Notes under the pieces: model-generated
What the model was told of the DNA's origin: nothing
The model's database searches: none
What the model saw: the letters and a program-made list of their open reading frames with translations, nothing else
Shown: in pieces, positions 5,768 to 23,952 of the stretch
Layout of the letters: each line of letters begins with the position of its first letter
Numbering within the stretch: the stretch's first letter is position 1
Position numbers and translations under genes: made by a program
Assembly (NCBI GenBank): GCA_050012755.1
Contig: JBEKGO010000002.1
Coordinates: 64,001 to 128,000 of the forward strand
Reading direction: 5' to 3'
Source: Candidatus Bathyarchaeia archaeon
GTDB taxonomy: Archaea; Thermoproteota; Bathyarchaeia; Bathyarchaeales; Bathycorpusculaceae
Length of the DNA: 64,000 bases

Positions 5768-5768
5768 T

Positions 5769-6619: not shown

Positions 6620-6818
6620 ATAATCCTCTTCTCCGATGGGTTTTCTGATTAAAATAGTAAATTACCTTCATATACATTTTTCTAGTAAAATGGAAAAATC
6701 ATCGGTGTTACTGTAAAAAATGTTGGTTTTTAAGTTGACAAAAGGTATTGCCTGAGTATTATTAAATTGATTGTAGCCAAATCGAAAAATTTCAAATAAC
6801 ACATTTGGCAAGTTAGCA

Positions 6819-6830
6819 ATAAAGATATAT
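6819..6830 (+). repeat. Candidate attL core ATAAAGATATAT
   Basis: Identical 12-mer at 22349-22360. It also resembles a BRE/TATA promoter element. Confidence 0.45.
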
Positions 6831-6909
6831 TTGCTTTCCCCCGTCAACATCTCCCGCACACAATTCCCTTTTTCTTTTCTCAGTAACCAATTATTTGGAG
6901 TGTACTTCT

Positions 6910-7923
6910 TTGATTGAAATTGAAAAACCTGACTTAGTGGCTAGATTCCTTAAAAGAGCCGTTCACAAAGAATCAACCAGAAGAATCTACGCTAACGGTC
7001 TCAAAGCATTCGAAGCCTTCTATCAAAAACAAGGTACAGTTAACGATTTCATGGACAGATTAGACGCTGATCTGATGCTGCCTTATCCTTTGCGAAAGGG
7101 AGTAGCAAGAGACGTACTGAGTGACTTCATAGCAGACTTGAAAGAAAAAAAATACAGTCCAAAAACAATCAGCACCTATGTTAACGCTTTACGTGCCTTA
7201 GTCAGTGACAAATACGATGATGAATATTCAATGTCCATTCGAAATAGCGGTCTTCCTGATTCTGAGGCAGAAAGCGATAAACAAGAATGGAACCTGGAAC
7301 TAATCAGCGAATTCTTTCTATCCTTTGACAATCCACTTTACCAAACTATTTTAGCCGTTATCTTCCAGTCAGGTCTCGGAATCGGAGACGTCTTAGCACT
7401 CACATACTCAGACATTCAAGAAGAGTTTGAGGCTGGCATAGTTCCAATCCTACTAACTTTGAAACGTCACAAAACAGACGTTGAATTTACAACTTTTCTG
7501 GGCAAGGTCACAGTTGACCAAATTCGAGCCTACTTTAAACTTGTTGGCACTCCAAGCCCAGAAAGCAAAATATTCCAAATAACTAAGGGTAGCGTAGAAC
7601 GGTTTTTCGCTAGAAAAGCAAGAAAGATCATTCGCAAAGAGCTAAAGAAAAAGACAGACAAGGAATCTATCGAATTGTTGAAAGCAGAAAACCCTTGGAA
7701 ACACTTTTGCCCAATGCGACCCCACAGTTTGCGAGCTGCTTTTCAAAAACTGCTTGTCCTAGCTGGATGCCCAGAGATACTTAGCGAATTCTGGATGGGA
7801 CATGAAACAGAGAAACAAAAAGGCTGCTATATCTTGAAAGGCATGGGTCCAAAAGAGCACCGAGAACAGTATGTCAAGTTCTACGATAAAGCCTTAGCAT
7901 TCAAAACAGAAAGGAGCGATTAA
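6910..7923 (+). CDS. Tyrosine recombinase/integrase (non-canonical box I)
   Basis: SAM-like N-domain (SPKTISTY), QSGLGIGD, RHKT, HSLR, MGH, GCY; GGAG upstream of TTG at 6910. Confidence 0.88.
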   Translation: MIEIEKPDLVARFLKRAVHKESTRRIYANGLKAFEAFYQKQGTVNDFMDRLDADLMLPYPLRKGVARDVLSDFIADLKEKKYSPKTISTYVNALRALVSDKYDDEYSMSIRNSGLPDSEAESDKQEWNLELISEFFLSFDNPLYQTILAVIFQSGLGIGDVLALTYSDIQEEFEAGIVPILLTLKRHKTDVEFTTFLGKVTVDQIRAYFKLVGTPSPESKIFQITKGSVERFFARKARKIIRKELKKKTDKESIELLKAENPWKHFCPMRPHSLRAAFQKLLVLAGCPEILSEFWMGHETEKQKGCYILKGMGPKEHREQYVKFYDKALAFKTERSD

Positions 7924-7925
7924 AT

Positions 7926-9233
7926 TTGAGTGAGAATGATAAGAACGAAAAAAATAATGAACCCCTTGAAACTAAGAATAAAAAAGTTAAGGTGGTGACT
8001 GTTCGACTGACCCCAGAAGAACTTGCTGCTATCGACAAGACTTGCCCCGTTGGTGAAAGAAACCAACTAATCAAGCACATGCTAAAAGAAGGAATTGAGA
8101 AATCAGGTGGCCAGATTCAAGCTCCCGTAGTTACCTACGAGAAACTTGAGGCTGAAACTGACCAATGCAGAAGGAAAATGGACCGTATTATCCGAGCAAT
8201 GAAGAATTTCCAAAGAGTATATGACAACTTTGTAACACAGCCTTTGACACCTGAGAATATTCCAGCTCTTATTGAGGAACTACGAGAATTCAATGATGAA
8301 TCAACAGCACAAAACACTCTTGGAAATGGGTTTAGTCAAGGTGACGTCTACGATTTCATTGTGTACCTGAAAACAAAGCAGAAGCATGACGAACTTTGCA
8401 AACAGATGCGAGTCAAGGAAAAAGCAGAACTTGGAAAGAGTGAGACTCCAACCGAAAACAAGGATGCAAAGGTTAGCACTGAGCCCGAAACTCTTAATCT
8501 TTTGAGACTGAAGCATGTACCGAAAAATAGGCTATGCGGTTGTGGAAGACATGAGCTCAAAGAAGACCATAACAGACGTTGCATGTATATAATGGACACT
8601 CAACATGCATGTGGGCTTCGCATGACTAACCAAAACTTAAACACACCTGAGAAACTATTGAAAATGATTAACAGTACTGTGTGGGAGTTCGTAACAAGTG
8701 CTGAAGAAAAGAATTGGATCATTGACTACCTCAAGAAGCAAGGAACTACCTCTCAGAAGGTAACAGTTAACACATACTTCTATTTTCGGCTGTTTCCTAT
8801 TCCTTTTCCAGAATGCGATACCTACCTTTTCGGGAAACTTGTCACTGAAGACCTAACATGTGAAAAGACAAGAGCTGTTCTTCTAGATCCTGAAGACAGA
8901 GATTTGTGCATTACACAACAAAGCCTTAACAGAATAAACCCTGACGAAGACCCAGAACGCATGATACGCATGATAACTGGTAGCAAATGGGGCTGGATGT
9001 ACATAGGCAAAGCGCAAAAAGAAATATTGGTAGCCTACCTGAAAGAGCACAAACTTCCATTTCCAAGATACAAAGGCAAGCATGTGAAGTTAGAGTTTGC
9101 AATCTTTAACGATAATGGTAGCTATCATATCCCTGAAGCAGCACAGCGTTTTCTGGATGAACAAGACAAAACCCAAACAGAAGACAGCGAACCGAATTTC
9201 TTTGATAGCACAGAAGAAAACACAGAAGACTAA
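7926..9233 (+). CDS. Hypothetical protein with N-terminal ribbon-helix-helix domain, coiled coil and an internal repeat
   Basis: VVTVRLTPEELAAID...RNQLIKHML is RHH-like; starts 2 bp after the integrase stop. Confidence 0.65.
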   Translation: MSENDKNEKNNEPLETKNKKVKVVTVRLTPEELAAIDKTCPVGERNQLIKHMLKEGIEKSGGQIQAPVVTYEKLEAETDQCRRKMDRIIRAMKNFQRVYDNFVTQPLTPENIPALIEELREFNDESTAQNTLGNGFSQGDVYDFIVYLKTKQKHDELCKQMRVKEKAELGKSETPTENKDAKVSTEPETLNLLRLKHVPKNRLCGCGRHELKEDHNRRCMYIMDTQHACGLRMTNQNLNTPEKLLKMINSTVWEFVTSAEEKNWIIDYLKKQGTTSQKVTVNTYFYFRLFPIPFPECDTYLFGKLVTEDLTCEKTRAVLLDPEDRDLCITQQSLNRINPDEDPERMIRMITGSKWGWMYIGKAQKEILVAYLKEHKLPFPRYKGKHVKLEFAIFNDNGSYHIPEAAQRFLDEQDKTQTEDSEPNFFDSTEENTED

Positions 9234-9265
9234 GCTAATAACAGTGTTATATTAATTGTCTGCCA

Positions 9266-9551
9266 AAAAGCATGGGGAAAAGCATGGAAAACCCCGTGCT
9301 TTCATGTTATCTTTACACGTTTTTTCTCCTGAAAGTGATATCAGAAAGCCCATGCTGCTTATAAGTGCTATCACCCTGTTTTTTCATGCTATCACCCCAT
9401 TGAAATACATCAAAACTCTACTAACAGTCTATTTTCTGATTTTTTCCCATGCTCGTGCTGTCACGACCAGCCCTTTCGACCTGAAACATATGGAAAATAT
9501 AGCCTATTAACTCTAAATTAATAGGCAACGTCTCGATGATAGCGATAGCAC
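9266..9551. repeat. Non-coding cluster of short direct and inverted repeats (AAAAGCATGG x2, TGCTATCACCC x2, CATGCT)
   Basis: AAAAGCATGG at 9266 and 9278; TGCTATCACCC at 9366 and 9387; inverse CATGCT near 9351, 9385 and 9448; GATAGC twice at 9538-9549. Confidence 0.6.
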
Positions 9552-9890
9552 TCAAATTTTTAAAACTTTGAAAAAAATCTCTAAGAACAAATCTGAATGG
9601 ACTCAGCAACATTACTGAAAGCCCAAAGCTAAATCATTATTCTTCTCAGAAGGGAAAGGTATTGTTTGGCTTTACTCTTTGAGCAGCCAAGAACCTGCAT
9701 GCTGTCTTCAGCTTGTAGCTCTCCAGCGATATTGGCCTTAGAGACTTCAAATTCCCTCAAAGGAAAAAGAACAAATTATTATAATTAACTCAGCAATATT
9801 TGCGTAAGTCTAATATAGATTGTCTGTTCACAACAGCTAATACTTAAGAAGGAGTATGACAACATATGCTGATAGAAGCGAGCGTTATAG

Positions 9891-10808
9891 GTGAACGCAT
9901 TGGCTCTTGATACTTCTTGTAGTTTGTCCGAATACCCACAGAACAGTTTGCGTTTTGGATTAATTGACTTAAAACCCATAGAATTTACTGAGAAAATAAA
10001 GTTAGGGAATGTGAAGTTTAGAGCAACAAGACTAAAGCTAGAGCCGACCAAACCGATCAGTTCTTTTCAGGATTTGGTAACTTTAGAAAATGATTTCATC
10101 GTCAACTCAATTAAAATTCCTAGCAGGTTTAATGCTCAAGAACTTTCGAGTTTCTTTTCTAAGATAAGTATAGATTATTTTGAGAAAGATACTGAGCTAA
10201 AGCAAGAAATTGAAAACATGAAAAGAAGAGATAGGAGAAGACCTTTTTTCACATTCGTTCAATTTATGAAAGAGAGGTTTGAATCCGACAGAGACGATAA
10301 TTTAGAAGCAGAAGCAAGGAGATTCTTAACGTCAAATTTTCCGCTTTCATTCTATAACAAGTTCACTGTATTTGACAATACATATTATGATTTTCTCAAA
10401 GTAATACAGGAGATAGTCAGGGCTCATGAATTTCTTGCTGTTTATTCGAGAAACTCTCAAATGTACGCAAAGAGAATTTCAGCAATGCAACATGATTTGG
10501 GGCCATTAATCGATAAATTTGATGGATGCTATTTGGCTTGTGCCACGCTTAAGAAATATGTAACAATTTGGAACTCGAAATCGATTGAGGATTTGGGCTG
10601 CCCTGAGTTTCTTGATTTCAAGAAGACAGACATTACCGATTTTGATCGTCTAAACAGTAACTTTAATCTTAAGTTGAGAGAACTAAGAGTTGCTCTTCTT
10701 GATCGCGATTCAAACATTTTGCGCAAATCTGTTGATCTTAAAGATCCAACTACTAAAATGTTCAGTAAACTTCTAGTTATGCCTTCCAGTTCTTTGAGCT
10801 TGGGGTAG
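9891..10808 (+). CDS. Hypothetical protein, partner of the downstream PIN gene
   Basis: 305-aa AT-rich ORF ending 5 bp before the PIN gene; no motif recognised. Confidence 0.65.
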   Translation: MNALALDTSCSLSEYPQNSLRFGLIDLKPIEFTEKIKLGNVKFRATRLKLEPTKPISSFQDLVTLENDFIVNSIKIPSRFNAQELSSFFSKISIDYFEKDTELKQEIENMKRRDRRRPFFTFVQFMKERFESDRDDNLEAEARRFLTSNFPLSFYNKFTVFDNTYYDFLKVIQEIVRAHEFLAVYSRNSQMYAKRISAMQHDLGPLIDKFDGCYLACATLKKYVTIWNSKSIEDLGCPEFLDFKKTDITDFDRLNSNFNLKLRELRVALLDRDSNILRKSVDLKDPTTKMFSKLLVMPSSSLSLG

Positions 10809-10813
10809 CATGC

Positions 10814-11578
10814 TTGAGTACTCCGACTGTGCCGCGCTGTTTTTTCTTGGATACAAACATCGTGATTTCAGATATTTTGAACGAAAACAACCTTCGTATA
10901 GGAAAAATGAAGGAAGATGCTCGTCTTAATAATATCCCATGTTACATTTCTGACTCCATAAAAACAGAAGTATATGGAAAAGTCACTAATACATGTAATT
11001 TCTTAGGAAACGCAGTAAGAGATACCGTGAAGGATGCCTTGGAAAATGCAAGGGCAAAGAGGGGTACTCCTGCAAATGCACCTATTGATAATGCCGATAT
11101 TAAGGCTTTGGAAGACTTATTTTGTATTTGTCATAGTCCTGCTAGAACGCAGAATCTGCCTTTAATTGGACCAGTGTTAGAAATCGAGCAATGGGCTGTA
11201 AAATTTATTGGGGATAAACTGAATGAGGGTGCCAAAATAACCATTGACGATTTTCTGGTTGAGATGTCTAAGAAATTACTTGCGACCACGAGTTTAATTG
11301 AAGATGTATATGATAACTTGGTCGAATTTGAAATGGGGTATATAAAGACCAAGACAATTCCTGTTACTCGACCCCTGGCAGACTTGATTTTCGACGTGGG
11401 GGTTCATAGTCCAGACAATGTTCATATCGCAGTTGCATTCACCTATCAGGTTTCAAACAATGAAAAAGTAGTATTTGTGACTCAAGATTATGGGATATTG
11501 GGTAAGAAAGACGACCTTTGGAATCATAGTATAAGAATAGAATTAAGCGATCCCTTGTATGCCTTTTATCATTTCTAG
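10814..11578 (+). CDS. PIN-domain nuclease with a large helical insertion
   Basis: FFLDTNIV, E in KTEV, PDNVHIAVA and FVTQD: the PIN acidic residues. Confidence 0.8.
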   Translation: MSTPTVPRCFFLDTNIVISDILNENNLRIGKMKEDARLNNIPCYISDSIKTEVYGKVTNTCNFLGNAVRDTVKDALENARAKRGTPANAPIDNADIKALEDLFCICHSPARTQNLPLIGPVLEIEQWAVKFIGDKLNEGAKITIDDFLVEMSKKLLATTSLIEDVYDNLVEFEMGYIKTKTIPVTRPLADLIFDVGVHSPDNVHIAVAFTYQVSNNEKVVFVTQDYGILGKKDDLWNHSIRIELSDPLYAFYHF

Positions 11579-11595
11579 GCTATTAGAATTCTTAG

Positions 11596-11717
11596 TTATG
11601 ATAGGGCTTTCTTCTCAATAATTATCTGTTTCCTTCGGCCCACATTTCGAGAGCATCACCTGGAAAGAGTTTATTTCTTCTATCTGGATCGTCGATTAGA
11701 TTCTTGGCCCAGCTCAA
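11596..11717 (-). pseudogene. Frameshifted AbrB-like remnant
   Basis: Manual translation LFPGDALEMWAEGN / IIIEKK across a 1-nt shift resembles the C-half of the AbrB at 12089-12250. Confidence 0.4.
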
Positions 11718-11734
11718 ACAGTCTCACTTTGATA

Positions 11735-12076
11735 CTATTTTTTCTTTTCTTTTTTGGTTGTCTTTGGTTTACGCCAGGGCTTTCCGCTTGAAAGGAAATC
11801 GTCATCAAATAAGTCTTGAAGAGTGTCGTTTGGACGCCCTCTCGGAATTTCTTTACCCAAAGTTCTCACCTGAACACGTTCAACTATTGCCTTCTTCAAA
11901 GCTGCTAGGGTTTCAGTGTCCTCTTGATAAAACAAAGTACGACTTGTTTTGTCTCCTCTTTCGCCTTTGAGAAAGACAAAGTTTTCAAGAACCTGCCCTA
12001 GCCTCCAATCAGGAAACGCTTCCCAAATAGTTTTCAAAGCCTCAAGAACTTCAGAAATACGTTTAGGGTCTCTCAT
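11735..12076 (-). CDS. MRDPxRI-type phage/MGE hypothetical protein (YihD/DUF1040-like)
   Basis: MRDPKRISEVLEALKTIWEAFPDWRLGQVL pattern. Confidence 0.6.
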   Translation of the reverse strand: MRDPKRISEVLEALKTIWEAFPDWRLGQVLENFVFLKGERGDKTSRTLFYQEDTETLAALKKAIVERVQVRTLGKEIPRGRPNDTLQDLFDDDFLSSGKPWRKPKTTKKEKKK

Positions 12077-12088
12077 AACAATTCATCC

Positions 12089-12250
12089 CTATTTCTTCTT
12101 CTCAAGAATAACGTGGCTGTTGTCAGACCACATTGAAACTGTGTCACCTTTCTTTAACTCAAGGTGTCTGGATAGTTCTTTCGGAATTGTGATCTTCAGA
12201 CTGTTACCAACTTGAACGACTTTGATTTCAAACTTCACTGGCATACTCAT
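12089..12250 (-). CDS. AbrB/MazE/SpoVT-family DNA-binding protein (53 aa, absent from the ORF track)
   Basis: Manual translation: MSMPVKFEIKVVQVGNSLKITIPKELSRHLELKKGDTVSMWSDNSHVILEKKK; GGTGA upstream. Confidence 0.85.
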   Translation of the reverse strand: MSMPVKFEIKVVQVGNSLKITIPKELSRHLELKKGDTVSMWSDNSHVILEKKK

Positions 12251-12267
12251 GACCTTTTCACCTTCTT

Positions 12268-12338
12268 GGATATTCTTAGGATATACTTAAATATAAGGAT
12301 ATCCAACAGATATAAATGCGGATATCCATAATATATCC
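12268..12338. promoter_or_regulatory. Operator-like GGATAT(CC) repeats in a divergent promoter region
   Basis: GGATAT at 12268 and 12279; palindromic GGATATCC at 12297 and 12320; ATATCC at 12333. Confidence 0.6.
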
Positions 12339-12356
12339 TTTAAGGAGAAAACTAAA

Positions 12357-12623
12357 ATGTCTAAAGAACAGAACGATTTTAAAACCGATATTGAGAAGCT
12401 CCATGAATCGCTAAGCTGCCAACATTGCAGACACAACGAAAAAGGTCAAGAACCCTTTGATGAAATGAAACAGATAAAGCTAACACCACTTGCAGACAAA
12501 GCGCTCCAACAGACAGCAAAACAATTCTGTGTAGAACCTGATTGCGTACTCTGTCTTTCAGTCCAGAGTTTTCTTAAATTGCCTTGGAACAAACAGCTAG
12601 ACCTTCTCAAAGGAAAGAACTAA
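12357..12623 (+). CDS. Small Cys-containing protein with a possible RHH segment
   Basis: CQHC and CVLC motifs; QIKLTPLADKALQQTAKQF is RHH-like; GGAG SD. Confidence 0.65.
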   Translation: MSKEQNDFKTDIEKLHESLSCQHCRHNEKGQEPFDEMKQIKLTPLADKALQQTAKQFCVEPDCVLCLSVQSFLKLPWNKQLDLLKGKN

Positions 12624-12639
12624 CCTGGAGACAAAAACA

Positions 12640-12882
12640 ATGTCAAAACAATTACTAAAAGACAAAGAAAAATTCATGTTAGAAGGCGCGCTAGGATATG
12701 CCCGAAGAATCTGTGACAAGATAGAGGATAAAACAACCGTGGAAGAAATTAACCAAATGGTTCAAAATGATGTAGGAGCAATAAGTGGCGCTCTATCAAG
12801 TCACTGCAAACAAGGCTTAATGTTTGCTGGAATGGAATGCGGTCTTTTCGAAGATCACTTACCACAATCAGATAAAAGCTAA
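12640..12882 (+). CDS. Hypothetical protein
   Basis: GGAG SD and ATG; co-oriented with the 12357 ORF. Confidence 0.6.
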   Translation: MSKQLLKDKEKFMLEGALGYARRICDKIEDKTTVEEINQMVQNDVGAISGALSSHCKQGLMFAGMECGLFEDHLPQSDKS

Positions 12883-12914
12883 GTATTGCATGCAATACTT
12901 CCCATTTTCTTTTT

Positions 12915-13103
12915 TTATTCTGGATAAACCAATTTACTGCCACACATCGGGCAGTCTAAAGGCAGCTTGTTTTGAATGTTCATTAGTTCATATGAGCATA
13001 GAAAACAGAAGTAGATTTGGCATTTTGGACAATGCTTAGAAGCCCCACCAATCATTCTTCCGCAAGCGTCACAAGATCTTTCCAAATTAACCATAACTCT
13101 CAA
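12915..13103 (-). CDS. Stand-alone C4C4 RING-like zinc-finger protein
   Basis: Four CxxC pairs: CDAC, CPKC, CFLC, CPMC. Confidence 0.7.
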   Translation of the reverse strand: MRVMVNLERSCDACGRMIGGASKHCPKCQIYFCFLCSYELMNIQNKLPLDCPMCGSKLVYPE

Positions 13104-13227
13104 TCAAAATAATGGATAGATAAAGCGGAGGGTGAAACTAACTTTCTGAACAGAGGAGACCTAAGCAAAAGTGAATATTGGCTTGGTAATAAGTCTTAAA
13201 TTTGAATAGCGTTGAAATAGACTGAAC

Positions 13228-13770
13228 ATGGTTAGGTCAGAAGAAGTTAAGGCTTCCATGTTGCAATGTTTTCCTAAATGTCCAATTTGTTACCAAACCA
13301 AAGGTTACGATGTTCTTGGTGCGAACAAAGATTATGTCTCATGTAAAAAATGCTGTGCAACTTGGCAATCAGATGATTTTAGTAAAAATGAAAAGCTGAG
13401 CACGCTGAGACTTACTCAACCTTCAAAAGAAGGAGTTGGGCGTCTTCTTTTAGGCAAAACATTTTCAGTTGATTATTGGCAAAATTGGCGAGAGGAGTTG
13501 AAAGCCAAATTAGCCCCTCAGGAACACGCTAGGGCTAATTCTTTGCTTCAATGCGATAATGCAATATTGACAAATAATGAGTTTCTTTATCGTTCAAATG
13601 ATGAGATATTCGAGACTTCTTGGCATTTTCGATTTGACGGTTTAAACGTGGGCTTAAAGCTAACCCTTGCACTATGTACAAATCATGATTATAGCTCGAG
13701 GTTCCCCAAGAACAATTGCTTTCAGTGCCTACTGAATCTAAATCGAGAAAATGGTTCGTTTTTCCGTTAA
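13228..13770 (+). CDS. Zinc-ribbon hypothetical protein (C-terminus possibly degenerate)
   Basis: CPIC...CKKC at the N-terminus. Confidence 0.55.
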   Translation: MVRSEEVKASMLQCFPKCPICYQTKGYDVLGANKDYVSCKKCCATWQSDDFSKNEKLSTLRLTQPSKEGVGRLLLGKTFSVDYWQNWREELKAKLAPQEHARANSLLQCDNAILTNNEFLYRSNDEIFETSWHFRFDGLNVGLKLTLALCTNHDYSSRFPKNNCFQCLLNLNRENGSFFR

Positions 13771-13943
13771 ATTTTGACCGAGAAGCGTTGATAGAGTAGA
13801 ATTATCAGAAAGCGTTTCTGGTGAGTCATCTGCAGTAAGTGCTTTAAATTGGACGGCATTGCCAGAATAACGCCATAGAAAGTTTTTTAAAGAAAGCCAT
13901 CAGAAATAAGAGAACATAAATTCAAAAGGAGAGAAAAATTGAA

Positions 13944-14786: not shown

Positions 14787-14876
14787 GAAATTCGAGTTTC
14801 CCTCTTTTCTTTTTTGGAAATATTCTGAGGGTAATTGACAAAAAATAAAAGTACAAAGCGCACATTATTCAATTAA

Positions 14877-15587
14877 ATGTCTGTTAACGGCAAAAGATTT
14901 ATAGAGTTACTTAAAAAGCGTGAGAAACTTGAAGGCCTAAGGATTGCTAATATGCAACGAAACCTAGCAGTTTCATTGTATGCTGTGAGAAAAAATCTTG
15001 AAGATTTAACATTTCTAATAAACAAATATGAGAGTAATTTGGAACTGTGGAGCGTTGAAAACAGAGACAAATATGAGGAAGGCCTTTGGGAACTTCATAG
15101 GTTACTTCAGAATTACCTTTCAAGCATCTATTCTCTTATACAGCATACTGTGAAATTCTGCAGGGATTTAAATTGTGCTGAGCTTGACAGTGCCTATCGA
15201 AAAAAGAAAGACGAATTATTAAATTGGGACTGCGCAAAATTCGTCAGGGATTTGAGAACTTTTTCGGAACATATCGGGTTGCCTCTGTTAAAAGGAGTCA
15301 TTAACATTTCAAAAACAGAGTTTAAACAGTCAATATTGTTACAGAAGGACGAATTACTTAAGTGGCAAAATTGGAGCAATTCTTCCAAGAGGTACATAGC
15401 TTCAAAAAAAGAAATTGATTTAATGACTATCCTAAAAGAATATCAAGGGTTGATAGCGGACTTCTATCTGTGGTTTTATAAGAAAACCTGTCAAATTTAT
15501 GAAAAGCAACTTGCAGAGTTATCAATAATTGAAATTGAACTGAGTCGATGTGGTCCTCAATCTGGCACTCCAAGAAATACCGTGTAA
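14877..15587 (+). CDS. Putative HEPN-domain ribonuclease
   Basis: Helical protein with an Rx4H motif (DLRTFSEH) and an upstream HRLLQNYLSS...LIQH helix. Confidence 0.6.
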   Translation: MSVNGKRFIELLKKREKLEGLRIANMQRNLAVSLYAVRKNLEDLTFLINKYESNLELWSVENRDKYEEGLWELHRLLQNYLSSIYSLIQHTVKFCRDLNCAELDSAYRKKKDELLNWDCAKFVRDLRTFSEHIGLPLLKGVINISKTEFKQSILLQKDELLKWQNWSNSSKRYIASKKEIDLMTILKEYQGLIADFYLWFYKKTCQIYEKQLAELSIIEIELSRCGPQSGTPRNTV

Positions 15588-15690
15588 AAACTCTTTTTAG
15601 AACACTATCCATATCGGAAGACCTATTTCTAACTCAATATACCCACTCTAACAGCCACAAAAATGTGAGAGCTGGAAAAAAAGAAAAGAG

Positions 15691-15915
15691 TTATGTTGGC
15701 CTAAATGTTGGTTCTTCTTGAATCTTAACCAGAAAACTATTTTCACCTTTTATTATGAAATAGAGACTGGTGTCTTTTTCAAATTGGAAATACTGAACTA
15801 ACTCTTCTGGAAGTTCAACAAAGAGTTTGCCCTGTTTGCCTTTGATTTCTTCTATTCTTTTGAATCTCTCTTTATCCTCAGTCGAAGTCAAATTTTTTAC
15901 CAAGTTATTCACCAC
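15691..15915 (-). CDS. AbrB-like small protein
   Basis: LFVELPEELVQYFQFEKDTSLYF swapped-hairpin pattern; GGTG SD. Confidence 0.6.
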   Translation of the reverse strand: MVNNLVKNLTSTEDKERFKRIEEIKGKQGKLFVELPEELVQYFQFEKDTSLYFIIKGENSFLVKIQEEPTFRPT

Positions 15916-16002
15916 CTTGAAATCGCATCACATCTAACAGAAAAAAGGGAAAAAAGAAAGCAGTTAGTAACTTATTTCTAAATTGTTTCAAGTTTTTCAC
16001 CG

Positions 16003-16116
16003 TTATTTTGCCTTCCTTCTTCTATGCTTTTTGCTTCCGAAAAACAACGCATACCACACGGTAAGACCGATGCCAATCACCGAAATTAGAATCAACCAAG
16101 CTGCGAGATTAACCAA
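16003..16116 (-). CDS. 37-aa single-TM microprotein with a basic C-tail (absent from the ORF track)
   Basis: Manual translation: MVNLAAWLILISVIGIGLTVWYALFFGSKKHRRRKAK; GGAG SD just after the 16130 stop. Confidence 0.6.
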   Translation of the reverse strand: MVNLAAWLILISVIGIGLTVWYALFFGSKKHRRRKAK

Positions 16117-16129
16117 TTTTTGCCATCTC

Positions 16130-16879
16130 CTAAAGGGGAACTATAGTGTAACCGTTCATTTCCAAGTCACTCTTGAGACTCTCAATGTAGTCTGAAACTG
16201 CAGGATTGTTAACGGTTTGCATCAATTCTCTTTGCGCTTTTCGCAAATAGCCACCTTCTCGTAGCTCGGTTAGTTCTGGGGTTGTTTCTCCTAAGGCTTG
16301 GTCCGGAACTCGGGCTTGATCTTCCATGAACATTTGAACCGCTAGATCCTTGATTTCTTGGGCTGTTGGCATTGACGGTTTTATTGGCCTTCCATATTCG
16401 TCTGTTTTGATCTCTTCAGTCTTCGATCCCGTTTTGATTTCAGCCTCTAAGTCTTTAGCAGCTTCTTTTTCGACTTTCTCAAGTTCCTTCGCATCATTCT
16501 TGACGATTCTATAACGTTTGGTTGCTTTCTTTTGGTTAGGCTCTTTCAATTCAACGTTAACTTTGCGTCTGGAAGCAGCTTTAGCAATTACCAAAGATTG
16601 CAGTTTTCGATTCTTCTCGTTCAAATTGAGCTTTTGGTCGACTTGAGGCGCATCAAAACATTGAGGTGCTGACAGCCAAACTTCAAGATTAGGCGCTAAC
16701 GGTGCTTCTTTTGCTAAATCTGCTCGTTGGCTCTGTTCGCTTCTGCTTTCAAAAGCAATTTTCGCTAACCGCTTATCTCTAGCGCTGAAACCTGAACGCT
16801 TACCACCACCACCAAAACTCGATTTAGAACGGCGCTGATTGCCGTAATTTGAACCTTTAGACCTGTTTGGATAACTCAA
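16130..16879 (-). CDS. Hypothetical protein with a basic Gly/Ser/Arg-rich N-terminus
   Basis: 249-aa ORF with GGAG SD before TTG. Confidence 0.7.
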   Translation of the reverse strand: MSYPNRSKGSNYGNQRRSKSSFGGGGKRSGFSARDKRLAKIAFESRSEQSQRADLAKEAPLAPNLEVWLSAPQCFDAPQVDQKLNLNEKNRKLQSLVIAKAASRRKVNVELKEPNQKKATKRYRIVKNDAKELEKVEKEAAKDLEAEIKTGSKTEEIKTDEYGRPIKPSMPTAQEIKDLAVQMFMEDQARVPDQALGETTPELTELREGGYLRKAQRELMQTVNNPAVSDYIESLKSDLEMNGYTIVPL

Positions 16880-17135
16880 ATCAAAACAACTCCATTAGTT
16901 TTAGACAGAAAAAAGGTACTGAAAACCGATGAAAATTGAAAGTTAAAGCCCTTTTTTTCTTTTGCTCGGTCTTCAGTACCCAAACGGAGAGTACGGAGAT
17001 CACAGAACTTCTAAGCATGGCTGAGAGTACCAGATTTCTCACAAGAAACTGATTCCATCCCTCGAAGATTCTCTGCAACACATCCGATACTCTCAAAGTC
17101 TTGAGGTTTATTATCACTTTTAAGTTATTTGAAAG

Positions 17136-18035
17136 TCATTTCGACTGAGTTGTCATAGTTTCTATTTTTCCCTTAAGAAAATTACCCCATTCCAGTGTTG
17201 CTTGAGCAGCTTGAAACACATAATCAACATAAGAAGACAAGTATTTGTTCAAATCAGGTTCTTCTCTAATAACCTGCAGCCAGGTATCCAAAGCCAAATC
17301 TGGACTAAAATTAGGGTCATAATCAATTCCATATTGTTTAAAAAACTGTTTCAAGTCTTCTGGATCATCTTTTGACCAATTGTATTCATCTCGGACATAC
17401 GAAATATATTCAATAAGCCAATTTACCGTAAACTCTCTGAATTCCTCAGTGTCTAATTCTTTTTCTGCACTACCCAAATGAGCAATAAGAACAAGGAAAT
17501 TATCAGCAACACCTTTACCAAATTTTTGCTCAAGATATTTCCACTTACCAAACAAGGCTGGGTCAATATTACCCCAAATTTCAGCTATTTTGCCGATTTC
17601 TTCCCTGTCTTTCGGTTCCAACGGGCAATAATATAGTTGCAGTACTGATAAACAGAGCCCTGAACGAGTGAGGCTATACTCTAACATAGGATTGCCAAAA
17701 TACTTCCTTTTTTCTTTACCCGTAAGCATTCCCCCTTTCTCTAAGTCTGAGATTGCTCCATATACAGTGCCATGCCCAATAGTTACTTTTTTCTTGATTC
17801 CTTTTTTGTTTTCTGCTCCTTTGGGAAATGTCTCATGAAGCCATTTGTTTATGGCTCGTTCAATCTGGAGTTTAGTCTGTTTTTCTCTAGTCAATGCTAT
17901 CTGTCTCAAAACTACCCTTTGGCTGCCCATTATTTCAGATGTTTTGTAGAATTTGTCACCAAATATTCCATATAGAAAAGTGTTTCTTTCTATCAGTTGA
18001 CGTTTTTCGAGGAAATCCACACTGGCTCGCCTCAT
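17136..18035 (-). CDS. Putative winged-helix transcriptional regulator
   Basis: TVYGAISDLEKGGML...EYSLTRSGL resembles a wHTH recognition helix and wing; divergent from the AbrB operon. Start 18035 or 18077. Confidence 0.65.
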   Translation of the reverse strand: MRRASVDFLEKRQLIERNTFLYGIFGDKFYKTSEIMGSQRVVLRQIALTREKQTKLQIERAINKWLHETFPKGAENKKGIKKKVTIGHGTVYGAISDLEKGGMLTGKEKRKYFGNPMLEYSLTRSGLCLSVLQLYYCPLEPKDREEIGKIAEIWGNIDPALFGKWKYLEQKFGKGVADNFLVLIAHLGSAEKELDTEEFREFTVNWLIEYISYVRDEYNWSKDDPEDLKQFFKQYGIDYDPNFSPDLALDTWLQVIREEPDLNKYLSSYVDYVFQAAQATLEWGNFLKGKIETMTTQSK

Positions 18036-18041
18036 TTTATA

Positions 18042-18105
18042 TGTCAGTTTTTTGTGTATGTCATTGACAAATGACATATATAAAAGTATGTACGCAGTAC
18101 TGACA
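18042..18105. promoter_or_regulatory. Operator: perfect 9-4-9 inverted repeat TATGTCATT-GACA-AATGACATA (18057-18078) plus flanking TGTCA/TGACA half-sites
   Basis: Directly visible; abuts a TATATAAA box between divergent regulators. Confidence 0.7.
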
Positions 18106-18122
18106 AGGAAGCATAAGAGAAC

Positions 18123-18368
18123 GTGCCAATAATCAGAAAATTAATCCCATGTGGTCACAGCCAAAGCGTAACCTTGCCTAAAACATGGCTGCAAATGGCT
18201 GAAGAAAAAGAAGGCAAAAAGATTGTGGCTGTTGCTATGGAAGTGAACGGCTGTCTAACCATAAATCCAATTTTTGATAAAGAAAAAAAGGCTGAAGAGT
18301 CTCCAGACAAGGCAGCTTCAGCCTTAGACCACAACTCACACCAAGAAGATGCGATTGCTATTGAGTAA
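18123..18368 (+). CDS. AbrB/MazE-like DNA-binding protein
   Basis: MPIIRKLIPCGHSQSVTLPKTW. Confidence 0.75.
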   Translation: MPIIRKLIPCGHSQSVTLPKTWLQMAEEKEGKKIVAVAMEVNGCLTINPIFDKEKKAEESPDKAASALDHNSHQEDAIAIE

Positions 18369-18534
18369 ACCCTCAAATTCCCTTTTAAATAATTTGGCAC
18401 TTAAGACGAAACCTAAGATCGCTTGCTTATGGTTGATACATGAACCTGGACCCCATGTAGACTGTCCATATGAGAAGGATGGATTTTGCACTAACAAAAA
18501 GTATTGTAACCAAAAGGGGGTTTGGCCTCGTTGA
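18349..18534 (+). CDS. Cys-rich microprotein
   Basis: C..H...CPYEKDGFC...C; overlaps its neighbours. Start may be 18361. Confidence 0.5.
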   Translation: MRLLLSKPSNSLLNNLALKTKPKIACLWLIHEPGPHVDCPYEKDGFCTNKKYCNQKGVWPR

Positions 18535-18809
18535 GTAGTGTAAAAGGAATCATTGAATCATACTCAAACGACGCTTCGAGAGAAAAACTTGTTACCCTTG
18601 ATGTTCTGCTGAAGGCTGTCGATGCACGTGGCAAACAACCAATAGTCTTTTCCAAGTTCTCAAACAAAGCCTCCCTGAATGGTAAACATTTCTGTGTTGA
18701 TTGTGGTAAGCGTCTAAAAACTCACAGTGCAAAAAGGTGCGCCTCTTGTAATATGAGGCTAGTCGGCAAAAACCATGTGATAACGCGGAAACTAAAGGGG
18801 AAGGCCTAG
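18522..18809 (+). CDS. Zinc-finger protein
   Basis: CVDC...CASC. Confidence 0.6.
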   Translation: MASLSSVKGIIESYSNDASREKLVTLDVLLKAVDARGKQPIVFSKFSNKASLNGKHFCVDCGKRLKTHSAKRCASCNMRLVGKNHVITRKLKGKA

Positions 18810-18811
18810 CA

Positions 18812-18928
18812 TTGAAGACGAAATTAACCTGTAACAAGTGCGCTACGCTTCAATGTTTTGTTAGAGAAAGCAAAGATGGTTGCCGAGATGACGAACTTGA
18901 AAAGCAGACGGAGATCAGCAAACATTGA
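18812..18928 (+). CDS. 38-aa Cys-rich microprotein (absent from the ORF track)
   Basis: MKTKLTCNKCATLQCFVRESKDGCRDDELEKQTEISKH; its TGA overlaps the helicase TTG. Confidence 0.5.
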   Translation: MKTKLTCNKCATLQCFVRESKDGCRDDELEKQTEISKH

Positions 18929-20826
18929 CCGAGCAACCAAAACTCTATTGCCCTATCTGTAAAAAACCAACAAAAAAACTAGGTTCACCTGACAGTATAG
19001 GTCAACAATTTTACAAGTGCGAAAATGGGCATCAAACAACAAAAGAACCACTAACAGAACAAGGAATGAAAGTTGTTCTTGCTTTTGAGATTCAAGCCGA
19101 GCAAAACGGAGAAAAACATTACATTGACCCGTTAAACCCAATGGCTGCCTTTTGCAACGGAAAAGGAGTTTTCAAAACTGCCTTAGTTGCTCAGTACCTA
19201 AATTATAATTACCACTTCAAGATTGACCGATTAACCGAGATATTCTACTATGGAGACGAAACAACAAAAGTATGGAAAACAAAAGCTGAAATTTACGTCC
19301 AAGAAATCTTAAGCAAACTCTTGGGTGAAGAAAACACAAAAAGCCACTACACAAACATTCTACATGACCTCAAAGGATTAAGCTATGATGATGTTGTTTT
19401 TAGCAAAAAGGTAGCTGTAGAAAATGGGCTATTAGATGTTGAAACAGGGAAATTGACAGAACCAACGCTTGAGGAAATGGCTTATTATTCAATCCCTGTA
19501 AGATACGACCCAACAGCTAAGAAAACTGAGAATTGGCTAGAGTTTCTTAAACAAGTAACTAATCCTGAAGATGTACCATTACTGCAAGAATGGTTTGGTT
19601 TCTGTCTGCTACCTGATTACAAATTTCATAAGGTATTGTGGATTCACGGTGACGGACGAAACGGTAAAGGAGTTTTTGACCGAACAATCCAAGGTATAAT
19701 CGGAAAAAACAATGTTTCGGCTATTGGTCTAGAAGAATTAGACGGATCACATAGGTTTTCTTTATGCCATTTTTACGGTAAACTCTATAACACTTGCAGC
19801 GAACCAACCACAAACAAGATTTTCAGAACCGAAATATTCCAAAAGCTAACTGGAAGCGACACAATCAAAGCAGAACTCAAAGTTGCAAATAACCGAATAG
19901 AGTTTGTCAACTGTGCCAAACTGACCATAATAGGAAACAAATTCCCAAAAATCGACAACCCAACAGTGGCCTTCAAAGACAGAATGATGTTTGTCAAATT
20001 TCCAAACTTCTTCAGCGATAAAGACAGAATCGCAAATTTAGAAAATGTCTGGTTGAACGACCCCGAGCAAAAAAGCGCTATTTTGAATTGGGCTCTGGAA
20101 GGATTACATAGACTAAATACTCAAAATAGCTTTACCCAAACAAAGACTCAAAAAGAAACAGAAATCGAATTCAATAGAGTCAGCAATCCTCCAGGCGCCT
20201 TTATCATGGAAATGGGGATTCTCTGCAAAACCTTGGTCACAACACGAGCAGCAAATTTGACAACTTATCAAGAATACTGTGAGGATATCGGTGTCTTAGC
20301 CGATGCAAAAGCGCTCACTCAAGCAATGAACAGGCTATCGCCAAAAGTAAAAGAAGGCTGGATATACAAACCGAAAAAAGAAAGAGCATGGCTCGGTTTC
20401 GGATTAAGGAATATTGAACAACAAAACATAGAACAGATGGAACAGTTAGAACAGCAAAAAACCCTTAACGAAATTAACCAAACTGAAAAATCATATAATA
20501 GACAGGAAGAAACAGGTGTTCCAAGTGTACCAAGTGTTCCAATTTCAAACCCTTCAGAGCATCAATTAATAGTAGAGCAAGAGCCTTCAGGTCTAAAACG
20601 GTTAGAAACTACCAAACCGAGATTTTACGTTAAAGAGATTCCAATCGGACCTAAGTGTGATTGTGGAAAACTGGCCGTAACCTTTGAGATTGTAACACCT
20701 GGGCATGATGTTTTGAAACGTTGCACTGATTGTTTGGAGAAACTGAAACAACAATTCCCTGGAGCTATTTTCTGTGCAGCTTATCCAGAAATGCCAAGTT
20801 TTGATGATAGCGAAGGAGGCGCCTAA
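18925..20826 (+). CDS. Phage/plasmid P4/D5-type SF3 helicase with N- and C-terminal zinc fingers and no primase domain
   Basis: D5_N-like ENGLLD; Walker A GDGRNGKG; FQKLTGSDTIKAE; IIGNKFP; CPIC..C..H and CDC...CTDC. Confidence 0.9.
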   Translation: MTEQPKLYCPICKKPTKKLGSPDSIGQQFYKCENGHQTTKEPLTEQGMKVVLAFEIQAEQNGEKHYIDPLNPMAAFCNGKGVFKTALVAQYLNYNYHFKIDRLTEIFYYGDETTKVWKTKAEIYVQEILSKLLGEENTKSHYTNILHDLKGLSYDDVVFSKKVAVENGLLDVETGKLTEPTLEEMAYYSIPVRYDPTAKKTENWLEFLKQVTNPEDVPLLQEWFGFCLLPDYKFHKVLWIHGDGRNGKGVFDRTIQGIIGKNNVSAIGLEELDGSHRFSLCHFYGKLYNTCSEPTTNKIFRTEIFQKLTGSDTIKAELKVANNRIEFVNCAKLTIIGNKFPKIDNPTVAFKDRMMFVKFPNFFSDKDRIANLENVWLNDPEQKSAILNWALEGLHRLNTQNSFTQTKTQKETEIEFNRVSNPPGAFIMEMGILCKTLVTTRAANLTTYQEYCEDIGVLADAKALTQAMNRLSPKVKEGWIYKPKKERAWLGFGLRNIEQQNIEQMEQLEQQKTLNEINQTEKSYNRQEETGVPSVPSVPISNPSEHQLIVEQEPSGLKRLETTKPRFYVKEIPIGPKCDCGKLAVTFEIVTPGHDVLKRCTDCLEKLKQQFPGAIFCAAYPEMPSFDDSEGGA

Positions 20827-20827
20827 G

Positions 20828-20956
20828 TTGTGCGATTTGTTTTTTGCTCAACAAATTAGGGTAGAACGAACCCTCAAGGAGATTAAGACTTTCAATATTG
20901 AGGCGATTTTACTCTCTGAAGAATTGAAACGTTGCGAGGTCCAGCTCCATGATTAG
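20828..20956 (+). CDS. Small hypothetical protein
   Basis: GGAGG SD before TTG at 20828; coupled to the next ORF. Confidence 0.4.
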   Translation: MCDLFFAQQIRVERTLKEIKTFNIEAILLSEELKRCEVQLHD

Positions 20957-21137
20957 AACCGTCAAAAATTACCCCTGTAAATTTGTAACCGAGTGTAGGT
21001 CTAAGGGTAAGTTTGACCCTGAAAAATTCAGTTGCAATCATGGTGGTGGAGTTTCATGTGTGACTTGGTGCCGTCTTACAGACCGAGAAATTACTTCTAA
21101 TCCAAAATTGCTTGAGAAGGTAGGCAATTATGAGTGA
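20949..21137 (+). CDS. Cys-rich small protein
   Basis: Five Cys plus His; overlaps both neighbours. Confidence 0.55.
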   Translation: MIRTVKNYPCKFVTECRSKGKFDPEKFSCNHGGGVSCVTWCRLTDREITSNPKLLEKVGNYE

Positions 21138-22308
21138 AGCCCAAACAAAAACAATCGTAAAATGCCCTGAATGTGGCAGCCAAAAAGCCTTCAAAGACGG
21201 AATAAGGAAACTTTCAAACAAGCAAGAAAAGCAGCGTTATGTTTGCCGTGACTGTGGGTATCGCTATACAAAGCATACTAGCTTAAATGTCAATGACAAC
21301 AATAACGGAACTAACCAAATAAGCGCAATATACCTAGGTAAGGCGAAAAATTTGGTTTCCGCACAGAAATTAAACATTTGTGCGAGAGATGAAAGACTAC
21401 CAGCAGAAGCAAAAGGCTTAGTGGCTCAGTTCTTGGCATACTTGGAAAAAGAAGGCTTTTGTAAAGAAACAGAATATCCGAATTTGATAAGGCGACTTGC
21501 AAAACTTGGAGCTAATCTACTAGAACCCGAAACAGTCAAAGAAGCTATAGGCAGAATGACGGTTAAAAACGGAATGAAACTTCAATATGTATGTGCATAC
21601 AGCGCTTTTGCAACCATGCTTAAGATTCAATGGGAACCACCAAAATATCAACAGGAAGAAATAATACCCTTCATACCTGACGAATCAGAACTTGATGCCT
21701 TAATCAGTGCAGCTAGAACCAAAAAAATGGCAGGATACCTACAAGCACTCAAAGAAACTTATGGCGATCCATCTGAAGTACTTAGAATCGAATGGATAGA
21801 TATTTCAGAAAAAGAGCAAACAATCAAAATCAATCACCCAGTAAAACACCATAATCCGAGAACCCTTCAAGTATCTAGCCGACTTCTTTCAATGCTTAGT
21901 TGTTTGCCACATGATAAACCAAGAGTATTTAGCGGAACTTATGACAGCATAAGCATAGCTTACTGTAGATTGAGAAAAAGACTAGCTGAAACACAACAAA
22001 ACCCCAGGTTACTTGCAATAGAATTTAGAACCTTTAGACACTGGGGAGGAACAATGATCGCCTTCCACACAAACGGAAACGTGCTAATCGTCAAGAAACT
22101 ACTCGGCCACAAAAGCGTCAACAACAGCATGAAGTACATCGGAATGATTAACTTCAAAGACGATCAGTTTGAAACCGCACACGCAACAACTCTAGAGGAA
22201 ATCGAGAAACTAAGGCAAGCAGGTTGGCTAAAATACGATGAAATAACAATCAACGGAATGCAAATACATTGTTACAGCAAACCTAAGAGGTTTTCAAGCT
22301 ATGTCTAA
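21130..22308 (+). CDS. Tyrosine recombinase/integrase with an N-terminal zinc ribbon
   Basis: CPEC...CRDC; TYGDPSE (box I), PVKH, RTFRH, LGH, MKY. Confidence 0.9.
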   Translation: MSEAQTKTIVKCPECGSQKAFKDGIRKLSNKQEKQRYVCRDCGYRYTKHTSLNVNDNNNGTNQISAIYLGKAKNLVSAQKLNICARDERLPAEAKGLVAQFLAYLEKEGFCKETEYPNLIRRLAKLGANLLEPETVKEAIGRMTVKNGMKLQYVCAYSAFATMLKIQWEPPKYQQEEIIPFIPDESELDALISAARTKKMAGYLQALKETYGDPSEVLRIEWIDISEKEQTIKINHPVKHHNPRTLQVSSRLLSMLSCLPHDKPRVFSGTYDSISIAYCRLRKRLAETQQNPRLLAIEFRTFRHWGGTMIAFHTNGNVLIVKKLLGHKSVNNSMKYIGMINFKDDQFETAHATTLEEIEKLRQAGWLKYDEITINGMQIHCYSKPKRFSSYV

Positions 22309-22348
22309 GCTGAAAAAAAGTGTTGGCAATACGAAAAATCATGGTACG

Positions 22349-22360
22349 ATAAAGATATAT
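22349..22360 (+). repeat. Candidate attR core ATAAAGATATAT
   Basis: Direct repeat of 6819-6830, 40 bp after the integrase stop. Confidence 0.45.
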
Positions 22361-22423
22361 CTCCCTCGGACGTTCTATGAACAATACCTTTAGTGCTATA
22401 AGACGAATATGTGGTGAAGGGTT

Positions 22424-23884: not shown

Positions 23885-23901
23885 TTTTGTTTTAGAAGAC
23901 T

Positions 23902-23912
23902 AAACTTAAATA
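23902..23912 (+). promoter_or_regulatory. BRE/TATA promoter of tRNA-Asn
   Basis: AAACTTAAATA about 40 bp upstream of the mature tRNA. Confidence 0.5.
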
Positions 23913-23952
23913 CTATATTGGAACTGAAAAGGTGAAGTAAGCATTGTGATGT

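Follow-up and report, generated by a model that had tools for sequence, protein, structure and literature searches.

The 64-kb stretch of a Bathyarchaeia metagenome-assembled genome (MAG) from peat soil that was analysed here, hereafter the window, carries a 15.5-kb insert at positions 6819-22360, between porG and a B12-binding radical-SAM gene. The insert is probably one site-specific integrated element with no recognised virion or conjugation genes and with about 11 kb of variable cargo, inserted by int2, the tyrosine integrase gene product of its right end, at a core that resembles an archaeal B recognition element (BRE) followed by a TATA box. Its edges are two copies of the 12-mer ATAAAGATATAT. 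Coordinates are those of the window, G000 is the window's own genome and other G-numbers are further genomes.

Comparison with relatives in which the site is empty was decisive for the insertion and for the placement of its boundaries at the 12-mer. For this analysis, we compared the neighbourhoods of 10 relatives, picked via orthologues of the radical-SAM gene, which occur across the genus. In 6 of the 10 (G015, G012, G001, G005, G013 and G007), porG and the radical-SAM gene are direct neighbours in divergent orientation, with intergenic lengths of 262, 276, 266, 430, 322 and 401 nt. In the alignment, each of these empty sites holds a single copy of ATAAAGTTATAT or a near variant at the junction position; GCAATAAAGTTATATCT is the single-copy motif in three of them, with a variant in the rest, and its position coincides with that of the 12-mer. 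A preliminary description of the stretch had predicted that removal of the insert would leave a single divergent intergenic region, and had proposed alignment of related genomes as the check; the region would measure 274 nt (199+12+63), as compared with 262-430 nt in the relatives.

The left host flank is porG (6056-6619, minus strand; POR gamma subunit, Pfam POR 6.1e-41), which belongs to the porBADG genes on the minus strand ending at 6619 and whose orthologues adjoin the radical-SAM gene in the relatives. The right flank is the radical-SAM gene itself (22424-23884, plus strand; Pfam Radical_SAM and B12-binding), with orthologues at 70-88% in the relatives. The GC content is about 0.35-0.42 within the island versus 0.42-0.46 in the flanks. 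The attL core lies at 6819-6830, where host homology reaches it, and the attR core at 22349-22360, 63 nt upstream of the radical-SAM start codon. As described earlier, the two copies are exact; both are on the plus strand and they are the only ones in the window, also when one mismatch is allowed. The bare repeat is weak evidence, with at least 60 direct-repeat families within 5500-25500 and an exact 12-mer common to 10 of 7638 pairs of 150-nt segments taken 15.53 kb apart in the same genome.

The radical-SAM site has been used repeatedly. Elements occupy it in five genomes of the genus and a remnant is found in a sixth, and the int2-clade integrases at the site share 69-83% identity. In G018 and G036, the integrase adjoins the radical-SAM gene, attL and attR are both visible, and the shared core is the 13-mer ATAAAGTTATATC. 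These occupied junctions, together with the empty sites, bear out the proposed insertion with edges at the 12-mer. In G087 about 27 kb separate porG from the radical-SAM gene, the integrase has an internal stop and the attL core is mutated, with the adjoining end motif kept. The integrase of G070 is frameshifted, and in G010 just the last integrase codons and attR remain. The attB of G003 is intact, its 3.1-kb gap being due to an unrelated 775-aa host gene. The integrase is the only gene common to all of the four elements at this site; further sharing consists of a small AbrB-like protein with G036 and of a 67-79-aa open reading frame (ORF) between G018 and G036.

Both ends of these elements carry arm motifs. 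At the left end, G000, G018 and G036 have CATCTCCCGC(A/G)CACAATTCCCTTTTTCTTTT with a T-run, 16-17 nt inside the core. The conserved left-end motif of the window, CATCTCCCGCACACAATTCCCTTTTTCTTTT (6848-6878, plus strand), is nearly identical in the G018 and G036 elements and one base off in G087, and related forms also occur in elements at the rpS6e and C25-gene sites; the motif may have a functional role. At the right end, GGCAATAC (22325-22332, plus strand) lies 16 nt before the core in G000, G018 and G036, and is also kept in G087 (as GGCGATAC) and in the G010 remnant. A separate observation concerns G036:C128 (L060), where two core copies next to the radical-SAM gene are about 116 nt apart, in the order attR, 'NN', sequence of the left host flank and then the second core, which is attB-like. 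The arrangement resembles either a local duplication or two alleles, one occupied and one empty, that were joined in scaffolding, and may reflect a mixed population.

In agreement with the preliminary description, the insertion is not in a tRNA gene. Neither ARAGORN nor an Rfam E-value scan of 6000-24500 found a tRNA or tRNA fragment at either end. The sole tRNA detected by the two methods was a tRNA-Asn at 23953-24029, 1.6 kb outside the island, and apart from it the Rfam scan returned no non-coding RNA in the island.

To describe the core, we learned a 14-nt promoter matrix from the 60-nt regions that precede the 35 tRNA genes in the window's own genome. The consensus, RNWAAVSTTWAWWW, has the form of a BRE plus TATA box and mostly starts 40-55 nt before the tRNA 5' end. 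With this matrix the attL core scores 8.6 bits, and 8 bits are reached at 0.1% of genome positions. We also used a leave-out matrix from 31 tRNA upstream regions, in which the targeted tRNAs were excluded. Within 6 nt of the boundary of host homology, the highest-scoring position then ranked 1, 1, 1, 1, 2, 2, 3 and 3 of 300 positions at eight target sites, where a rough estimate of the chance of a top-3 hit in a 13-position interval is about 13%. Judged by sequence, the core thus agrees with the promoter consensus of the organism itself and lies at the distance expected of a promoter from the co-oriented gene that follows, which supports the earlier suggestion that a BRE/TATA-like core is kept by the host gene at attR. 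On the minus strand, at 6826-6839, the attL junction forms a promoter-like motif, GGAAAGCAAATATA, of 8.6 bits that faces porG and is seen only in this genome's element.

At seven further target sites of the integrase family, host homology starts at a promoter-like motif, and a co-oriented gene follows 41-76 nt downstream. Three of them are linked to tRNA genes, namely tRNA-Arg(tct) (boundary motif TAAAATTATATTTG, 41 nt to the tRNA 5' end), tRNA-Ile(gat) (46 nt) and tRNA-Ala(ggc) (TAAGAAACGCTTATTAAATG, 52 nt); at all three the boundary lies 41-52 nt upstream of the 5' end and the tRNA body is not overlapped. The others precede the genes for EF-1alpha (76 nt to the start codon; Pfam GTP_EFTU), rpS6e (ATAAATCCTTAATAG, 59 nt; Pfam Ribosomal_S6e), SMC (TAAGCTTTTATAC, 70 nt; Pfam SMC_N) and a 120-aa protein of unknown function (GAAAGGCTTTTCC, 61 nt). 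The target gene is always downstream of the integrase and on the same strand. We aligned 23 of the 24 loci that could be assigned to a site to G000, of which 2 gave no match and 4 matched only further downstream. Homology between the occupied attR and the unoccupied G000 locus began at the BRE/TATA-like motif in 17 of 21 alignments.

Both ends could be resolved for two elements at these other sites. The G135 element at the rpS6e site has a 14-nt repeat with copies 20.6 kb apart, and the G091 element at the site of the 120-aa gene has a 21-nt repeat with copies 10.2 kb apart. In both, CATCTCCCGC lies 11-17 nt inside attL, with a C-run and then a T-run behind it, although the identity of their integrases to int2 is as low as about 47-50%. 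A search for second core copies at the rpS6e site in five genomes found none with an 18-mer at up to two mismatches, and a 12-mer search gave one resolvable pair, that in G135. The other end of the G015 element at the tRNA-Arg site was not found within 17 kb.

The int2 gene (21130-22308, plus strand; PHROG_1 4.6e-14) is an intact frame of 392 aa. The core begins 40 nt past its stop codon and attP lies immediately 3' of the gene. We also considered an SSV-type ('suicidal') integrase, which was ruled out by the intact gene and the position of the core outside the ORF. An AlphaFold model inferred from a 17-sequence family alignment (predicted local distance difference test, pLDDT, 79) was compared with the PDB using Foldseek and matched XerA (6.1e-11), the integron integrase, Tn1549 Int, Cre and lambda Int, all with a probability of 1.00. 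In this model int2 has a tyrosine-recombinase fold with core-binding and catalytic domains. The N-terminal 50 residues form a four-cysteine zinc ribbon. Within the family K239, R303 and Y336 are invariant, and H241 and W305 are near-invariant. It is presumably int2 that catalysed the insertion.

Homologues of int2 were present in 95 of 120 genomes of the genus at E <= 1e-30, often with several copies per genome. Across 65 genome-contig loci the labels were Candidatus Bathyarchaeia or Bathyarchaeota, many from peat, bog and soil; the exceptions were one 'Thermoproteota', two 'uncultured archaeon' and one 'Paceibacterota' contig of 2.7 kb. A maximum-likelihood tree was inferred from 39 of 66 integrases, the others being truncated or containing stops. 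In this tree, integrase clades are coupled to target sites: the radical-SAM clade was supported by 100/100, its sister relationship to the tRNA-Arg(tct)-promoter integrase by 100/96, the S6e clade by 99/97 and the SMC clade by 100/100. The sites of the two sister clades, ATAAAGTTATAT at the radical-SAM gene versus ATAAAATTATAT, are 1-2 bases apart, a similarity that would fit target switching between similar promoters. Elsewhere in G000, contig C5 has a second left-end signature near 21761 on the minus strand, with a core-like TTAAATCCTTAATATAGG, CATCTCCCGC, a C-run and a T-run, and two short ORF pieces similar to the int2 zinc ribbon at 22841-22966 and 21494-21625; the int2 family probably has a further element here, in a decayed state.

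Upstream of int2 is a set of genes of which several recur in other elements. The helicase (18925-20826, plus strand) is of the D5/P4 type of superfamily 3 (SF3), which agrees with the preliminary description, and has terminal zinc ribbons. It matched TIGR01613 at 158 bits (cut-off 108.7), D5_N and DUF5906 above their cut-offs and phrog_864 at 5.5e-67; no primase-polymerase domain was recognised in it with Pfam, NCBIfam and PHROGs. Its homologues lie beside int2-type genes in G102, G115, G091 and G003 (29-47%) and also in G000:C34 (33%). Between helicase and int2, and overlapping the int2 start, is a gene for a 62-aa Cys-rich protein (20949-21137, plus strand) with a short match between helicase and integrase in G000:C34. 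Further upstream on the plus strand are an 81-aa protein that appears AbrB/SpoVT-like by eye (18123-18368; 50-64% matches in the G036, G003 and G063 elements) and a 95-aa zinc-ribbon protein (18522-18809; weak DZR and DUF7129 matches). The AbrB-like protein, the SF3 helicase, the Cys-rich protein and int2 form a module common to other int2-type elements. Divergent from this replication-integration operon is the gene for a 313-aa probable winged-helix regulator (17136-18077, minus strand), which matched PadR at 19.6 bits, under the cut-off, and for which the ESM Atlas gave leads, to be taken as leads only, to HTH_20/PadR clusters (0.85-0.88).

At the left end is int1 (6895-7923, plus strand), a divergent tyrosine recombinase gene with a SAM-like N domain (PHROG_1 8.2e-10; XerA_Arch 1.4e-9); the co-oriented recombinases that had been described at both ends are thus int1 and int2. 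The int1 family is rarer, with 18 of 120 genomes at E <= 1e-10, and in a 14-row alignment most members keep HxxR, H and Y. Next to int1, a 435-aa protein (7926-9233, plus strand) has an N-terminal stretch that resembles a ribbon-helix-helix by eye, but no family in Pfam, NCBIfam, PHROGs or PADLOC and no usable ESM Atlas match, the leads being below 0.9. A 305-aa protein (9891-10808, plus strand) likewise matched no family in these four libraries. It is followed by a 254-aa protein (10814-11578, plus strand) with a weakly PIN-like N terminus; the nuclease cargo proposed earlier comes down to this one sub-threshold PIN_12 hit (23 bits versus a cut-off of 32) and to an uninformative single-sequence fold (pLDDT 45). 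A 113-aa protein (11735-12076, minus strand) recurs near int1-like genes and has a 56% paralogue at G000:C1, 1.4 kb from such a gene; in G083 and G099 the distance is 1.7-2.5 kb. Two small ORFs of 88 and 80 aa follow (12357-12882, plus strand; no family in Pfam, NCBIfam or PHROGs).

A 59-aa zinc-ribbon-like protein with four CxxC motifs (12918-13097, minus strand) is below the 60-aa ORF threshold and was read from the sequence; its gene has a paralogue with 76% nucleotide identity at G000:C13:10486-10722. Contig depth around this gene was 2-4 times raised in four metagenomes, with loose ends at 12981-13231, indicating that the gene occurs in other contexts in the community. A 180-aa Cys-rich protein (13228-13770, plus strand) gave no family match with Pfam, NCBIfam, PHROGs and PADLOC. 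The 280-aa protein at 13944-14786 (plus strand), with a signal-like N terminus (residue 1) and a C-terminal hydrophobic segment (residue 235), is presumably secreted or anchored. Its gene has four paralogues elsewhere in the genome, and since it is absent from the empty sites of the relatives it is cargo rather than the resident host gene between tandem elements that the preliminary description had considered. The remaining genes encode a 236-aa protein (14877-15587, plus strand; phrog_12680 of unknown function, 1.4e-4; a 31% match in the G087 island) and a 249-aa Lys/Glu-rich protein (16130-16879, minus strand), which is similar at its N terminus to an ORF that adjoins the int1-like gene of G000:C1. 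No defence function of the cargo was indicated, with zero PADLOC hits among 15 proteins.

We propose the following mechanism. The element's own machinery would be the right-hand module of winged-helix-like regulator, AbrB-like protein, zinc-ribbon protein, SF3 helicase, Cys-rich protein and int2. The integrase would recombine attP, just downstream of its own gene, with a 12-13-nt BRE/TATA-like sequence of the radical-SAM promoter in the host. Such recombination would swap only the upstream DNA and both partners would retain a BRE/TATA motif; the host gene would keep its copy at attR because the whole motif is inside the duplicated core. The attL copy faces into the element and would fire into it. 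The CATCTCCCGC...T-run sequence could be a leader, an integrase-binding site or an insulating oligo-T terminator, and, once the element is circular, transcripts of int2 would end at the T-run. Across the family, each integrase clade is tied to one promoter-like site, at three tRNAs, EF-1alpha, rpS6e, SMC, the 120-aa gene or the radical-SAM gene. The int1 gene was most likely acquired by mosaic recombination with another type of element.

Several observations weigh against parts of this interpretation. Both integrases are under the Pfam gathering cut-off for Phage_integrase (21.3 bits for int2 and 23.4 for int1 versus 27.1), the XerA_Arch match of int2 (2.1e-7) is far under its cut-off, and neither family alignment shows the canonical first Arg of the catalytic set, the position being G, S, A or D in the int1 family. 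A working promoter at the core is a prediction from motif form, position and conservation. The attR core of the window scores only 4.4 bits with the leave-out matrix, yet ranks 2 of 300. At two of the other sites, those of EF-1alpha and SMC, the matrix finds a better match 51-58 nt closer to the gene, so that the main promoter of these genes may be other than the att motif. We inspected the sequence downstream of the integrase stop in 49 family loci whose 3' end is complete, and recurrent motifs assigned only 24 of them to a site. One paralogue of int2 in the same genome (35-38%; G000:C26:62009-63112, L014) converges with a tRNA-Ala(tgc) and stops 56 nt short of its 3' end; this corresponds to the classical arrangement at tRNA 3' ends and departs from the promoter sites used by closer relatives. 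The approximately 11 kb of genes without assigned function could conceal an unrecognised virion module. Finally, a pattern of the attP type (right-end motif, N16, core, N17, left-end motif) had no hits in the metagenome_contigs and viral_contigs collections, and the circular and empty-site junctions that the preliminary description had proposed to look for did not appear: neither a 6830-22349 joint nor the back-joint occurs in assembled Logan contigs of four independent peat and wetland runs, which are uninformative on rare excision because assemblies drop rare variants.

The latter two results would also be expected of a fixed island that is no longer mobile, in which the identity of the 12-mers is a relic. 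The decay of the same-site relatives, with the mutated core and integrase stop in G087, the frameshift in G070 and the remnant in G010, points in the same direction. We nevertheless consider such a fixed island unlikely: the two cores agree at all 12 of their 12 positions, the frames of int2, int1 and the helicase are open over their full length, the end motifs are intact on both sides, and assembled contigs cannot reveal rare excision. The element may still be able to excise. In the same runs, contigs span attL in two and attR in three of the four, in each case with 0-1 differences, and the depth within the island equals that of the flanks, which answers the coverage check proposed earlier. 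The left-end motif alone had three metagenome hits, all of them the attL of a G018-type element beside porG, and no viral ones. Another explanation is a provirus or helper-dependent satellite with virion or hijacking genes too divergent to be recognised. An integrase and a TIGR01613-type D5/P4 helicase are the conserved core of P4-like satellites as well as of integrative plasmids, and some 11 kb of the ORFs here have no family. Eight IMG/VR contigs encode int2-family members (31-44% identity), and of the two distant ones (31-32%), one shares its contig with a T4-type large terminase (L170) and the other with a phage portal (L171); tailed proviruses of Bathyarchaeia appear to use the integrase family of int2. 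The contigs with members at 36-44% have methylases, ParB, SIR2, GmrSD and RelA/SpoT-type genes instead of virion genes, and the contents of the IMG/VR contigs indicate that the family serves several kinds of elements. In the window, no family of capsid, portal, terminase, packaging ATPase, tail, VirB4 or relaxase was found with Pfam (28 ORFs) or with NCBIfam and PHROGs (22-24 island and flanking ORFs), in line with the capsid-less element without conjugation genes that had been described. The same-site elements share only the integrase and no conserved structural module, and a pattern search found no viral_contigs relative of the helicase. With P4-like satellites the element has only the integrase and the helicase in common: no helper-exploitation, cos or capsid-size genes and no primase domain were recognised, no helper virus was identified, and the host is archaeal. 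Nothing was found for the satellite suggested earlier, and we regard a hidden provirus or satellite as improbable.

The presence of two integrases raises the question of whether the island is two elements, an int1-type one (about 6880-12350, with int1 and the 113-aa gene as its limits) that sits within an int2-type one or is fused to the left end of it, each self-mobilised. A homologue of int1 is inside the element in none of the 11 other int2-type loci examined, and int1-like and 113-aa-like genes recur 1.4-2.5 kb apart in G000:C1, G083:C5 and G099:C14. The conservation with G018 and G036 ends just past the left-end motif, at the start of int1, whose place is taken by the 67-79-aa ORF in these two genomes. 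In run X2, a low-depth contig (2.9) has 11660 linked directly to 12271 and thus lacks the 113-aa gene; it may represent a variant form of the element that is present in the community. No direct repeat that bounds 6880-12350 was found, however, and the window has no third core copy at up to one mismatch; at two mismatches there are 7 hits versus 7.5 expected, and the 3 inside the island are at chance level. Moreover, G000:C1 also shares an 88-aa-like ORF and the N terminus of the 249-aa protein, which are outside the proposed nested unit and fit mosaicism better. In G000:C34, int2-like (27%) and int1-like (29%) genes are about 9 kb apart, and co-residence of the two may thus be a recurring design, for example of an integrase and a resolvase. 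Two independently mobile elements seem to us a rather doubtful explanation. The two tandem elements considered in the preliminary description are disfavoured by the missing third core and by a left-end motif like that of the single-integrase relatives. With genuine int2-type ends on both sides and no third core, the sequence suggests that the island is one unit with a likely mosaic interior, a simple tandem being unlikely. Two other loci of the same genome were noted. At G000:C34:3788-14943, an int2-like gene about 270 nt upstream of a co-oriented tRNA-Arg(tcg) is accompanied by a 62-aa-like ORF, a helicase and an int1-like gene. G000:C1:6000-20000 (L086) is a 14-kb segment, largely absent from five close relatives and with ends that could not be resolved, that contains int1-like (42%), 113-aa-like (56%), 88-aa-like and 249-aa-N-terminus-like ORFs and no int2-type integrase; this segment appears to be a second island that draws on the same pool of genes.

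One site-specific integrated element with an integrase, att repeats, an empty site and no recognised virion or conjugation genes fits the 'cryptic integrated element' (CIE) or integrative plasmid, and as a tyrosine-recombinase CIE it is of a kind that is already known. The CIEs of Thaumarchaeota likewise have a tyrosine integrase placed at the end, att direct repeats, a similar size (median 17 kb), SF3-helicase replication proteins, variable cargo and no virus or conjugation hallmarks (PMC6563490). In that survey 15 of 68 elements were intergenic, and the word 'promoter' is absent from its main text (PMC6563490). The elements differ in phylum and integrase family, and the intergenic targets found here are consistently BRE/TATA-like and upstream of co-oriented genes. 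Intergenic or intragenic attB sites of archaea have been reviewed for psiM100, BJ1, Msmi-Pro1 and NitGar-E6, none of them tested for recombination (PMC8371274). The Methanothermobacter wolfeii prophage psiM100 also has an AT-rich intergenic attB whose neighbouring genes are not reported as disrupted, but it is a tailed virus, and section 19 of the review does not state a link between its att core and a basal promoter (PMC8371274). Integration by the pTN3-type integrases of Thermococcales rewires the promoter of a host gene, the recombinant tRNA being expressed from an element promoter, but these are SSV-type integrases split by integration (PMC8371274). In our case, the tRNA body is untouched, int2 is intact and the crossover is in the upstream BRE/TATA-like motif.

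The SNJ2-type integrases of haloarchaea are similar in being a lineage-restricted tyrosine-integrase family with subgroups coupled to att sites, but their sites overlap tRNA genes in all but three reported cases (PMC5861418), whereas 8 of 8 resolved sites were promoter-like here. For Bathyarchaeia, a virome paper proposes four virus families (PMC10541130), and integrative plasmid-like elements are not treated in the available text of this and of a provirus paper (PMC11705971). The preliminary description had suggested an undescribed family; none such was found in the literature, but intergenic att sites in archaea are already known (PMC8371274). We found no report of archaeal integrases that target BRE/TATA motifs in the literature, where supplementary tables may list single intergenic att sites. 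The consistent use of a promoter-like core by a Bathyarchaeia-specific integrase family thus appears to be new.

Bathyarchaeia are among the most abundant archaea of sediments and peat, and their mobile elements are almost uncharted. The locus described here opens up a lineage-wide integrase family with at least eight mapped sites, all of them short promoter-like motifs before conserved genes. As a rule, such elements could be recognised in MAGs by an integrase 3' end that abuts a housekeeping promoter, and the natural pairs of integrase and attB, with cores of 12-21 nt, could serve the genetics of this uncultivated group. Should the motifs be working promoters, it would be explained how 'intergenic' integration can be harmless, with the compact basal promoter of archaea fitting within the crossover core. 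Very tentatively, and with more doubt than confidence, we suggest that this zinc-ribbon integrase family restricted to Bathyarchaeia may be specialised on basal promoters, with an attP composed of a BRE/TATA promoter and a leader or insulator, so that one promoter would be exchanged for another ahead of essential genes (tRNAs, EF-1alpha, rpS6e and SMC) and occupancy of the core by the TATA-binding protein (TBP) and transcription factor B (TFB) would couple integration and excision to transcription of the target. This raises the question of whether TBP and TFB compete with or assist a site-specific recombinase, and, if true, would represent a targeting strategy distinct from the tRNA-body paradigm.

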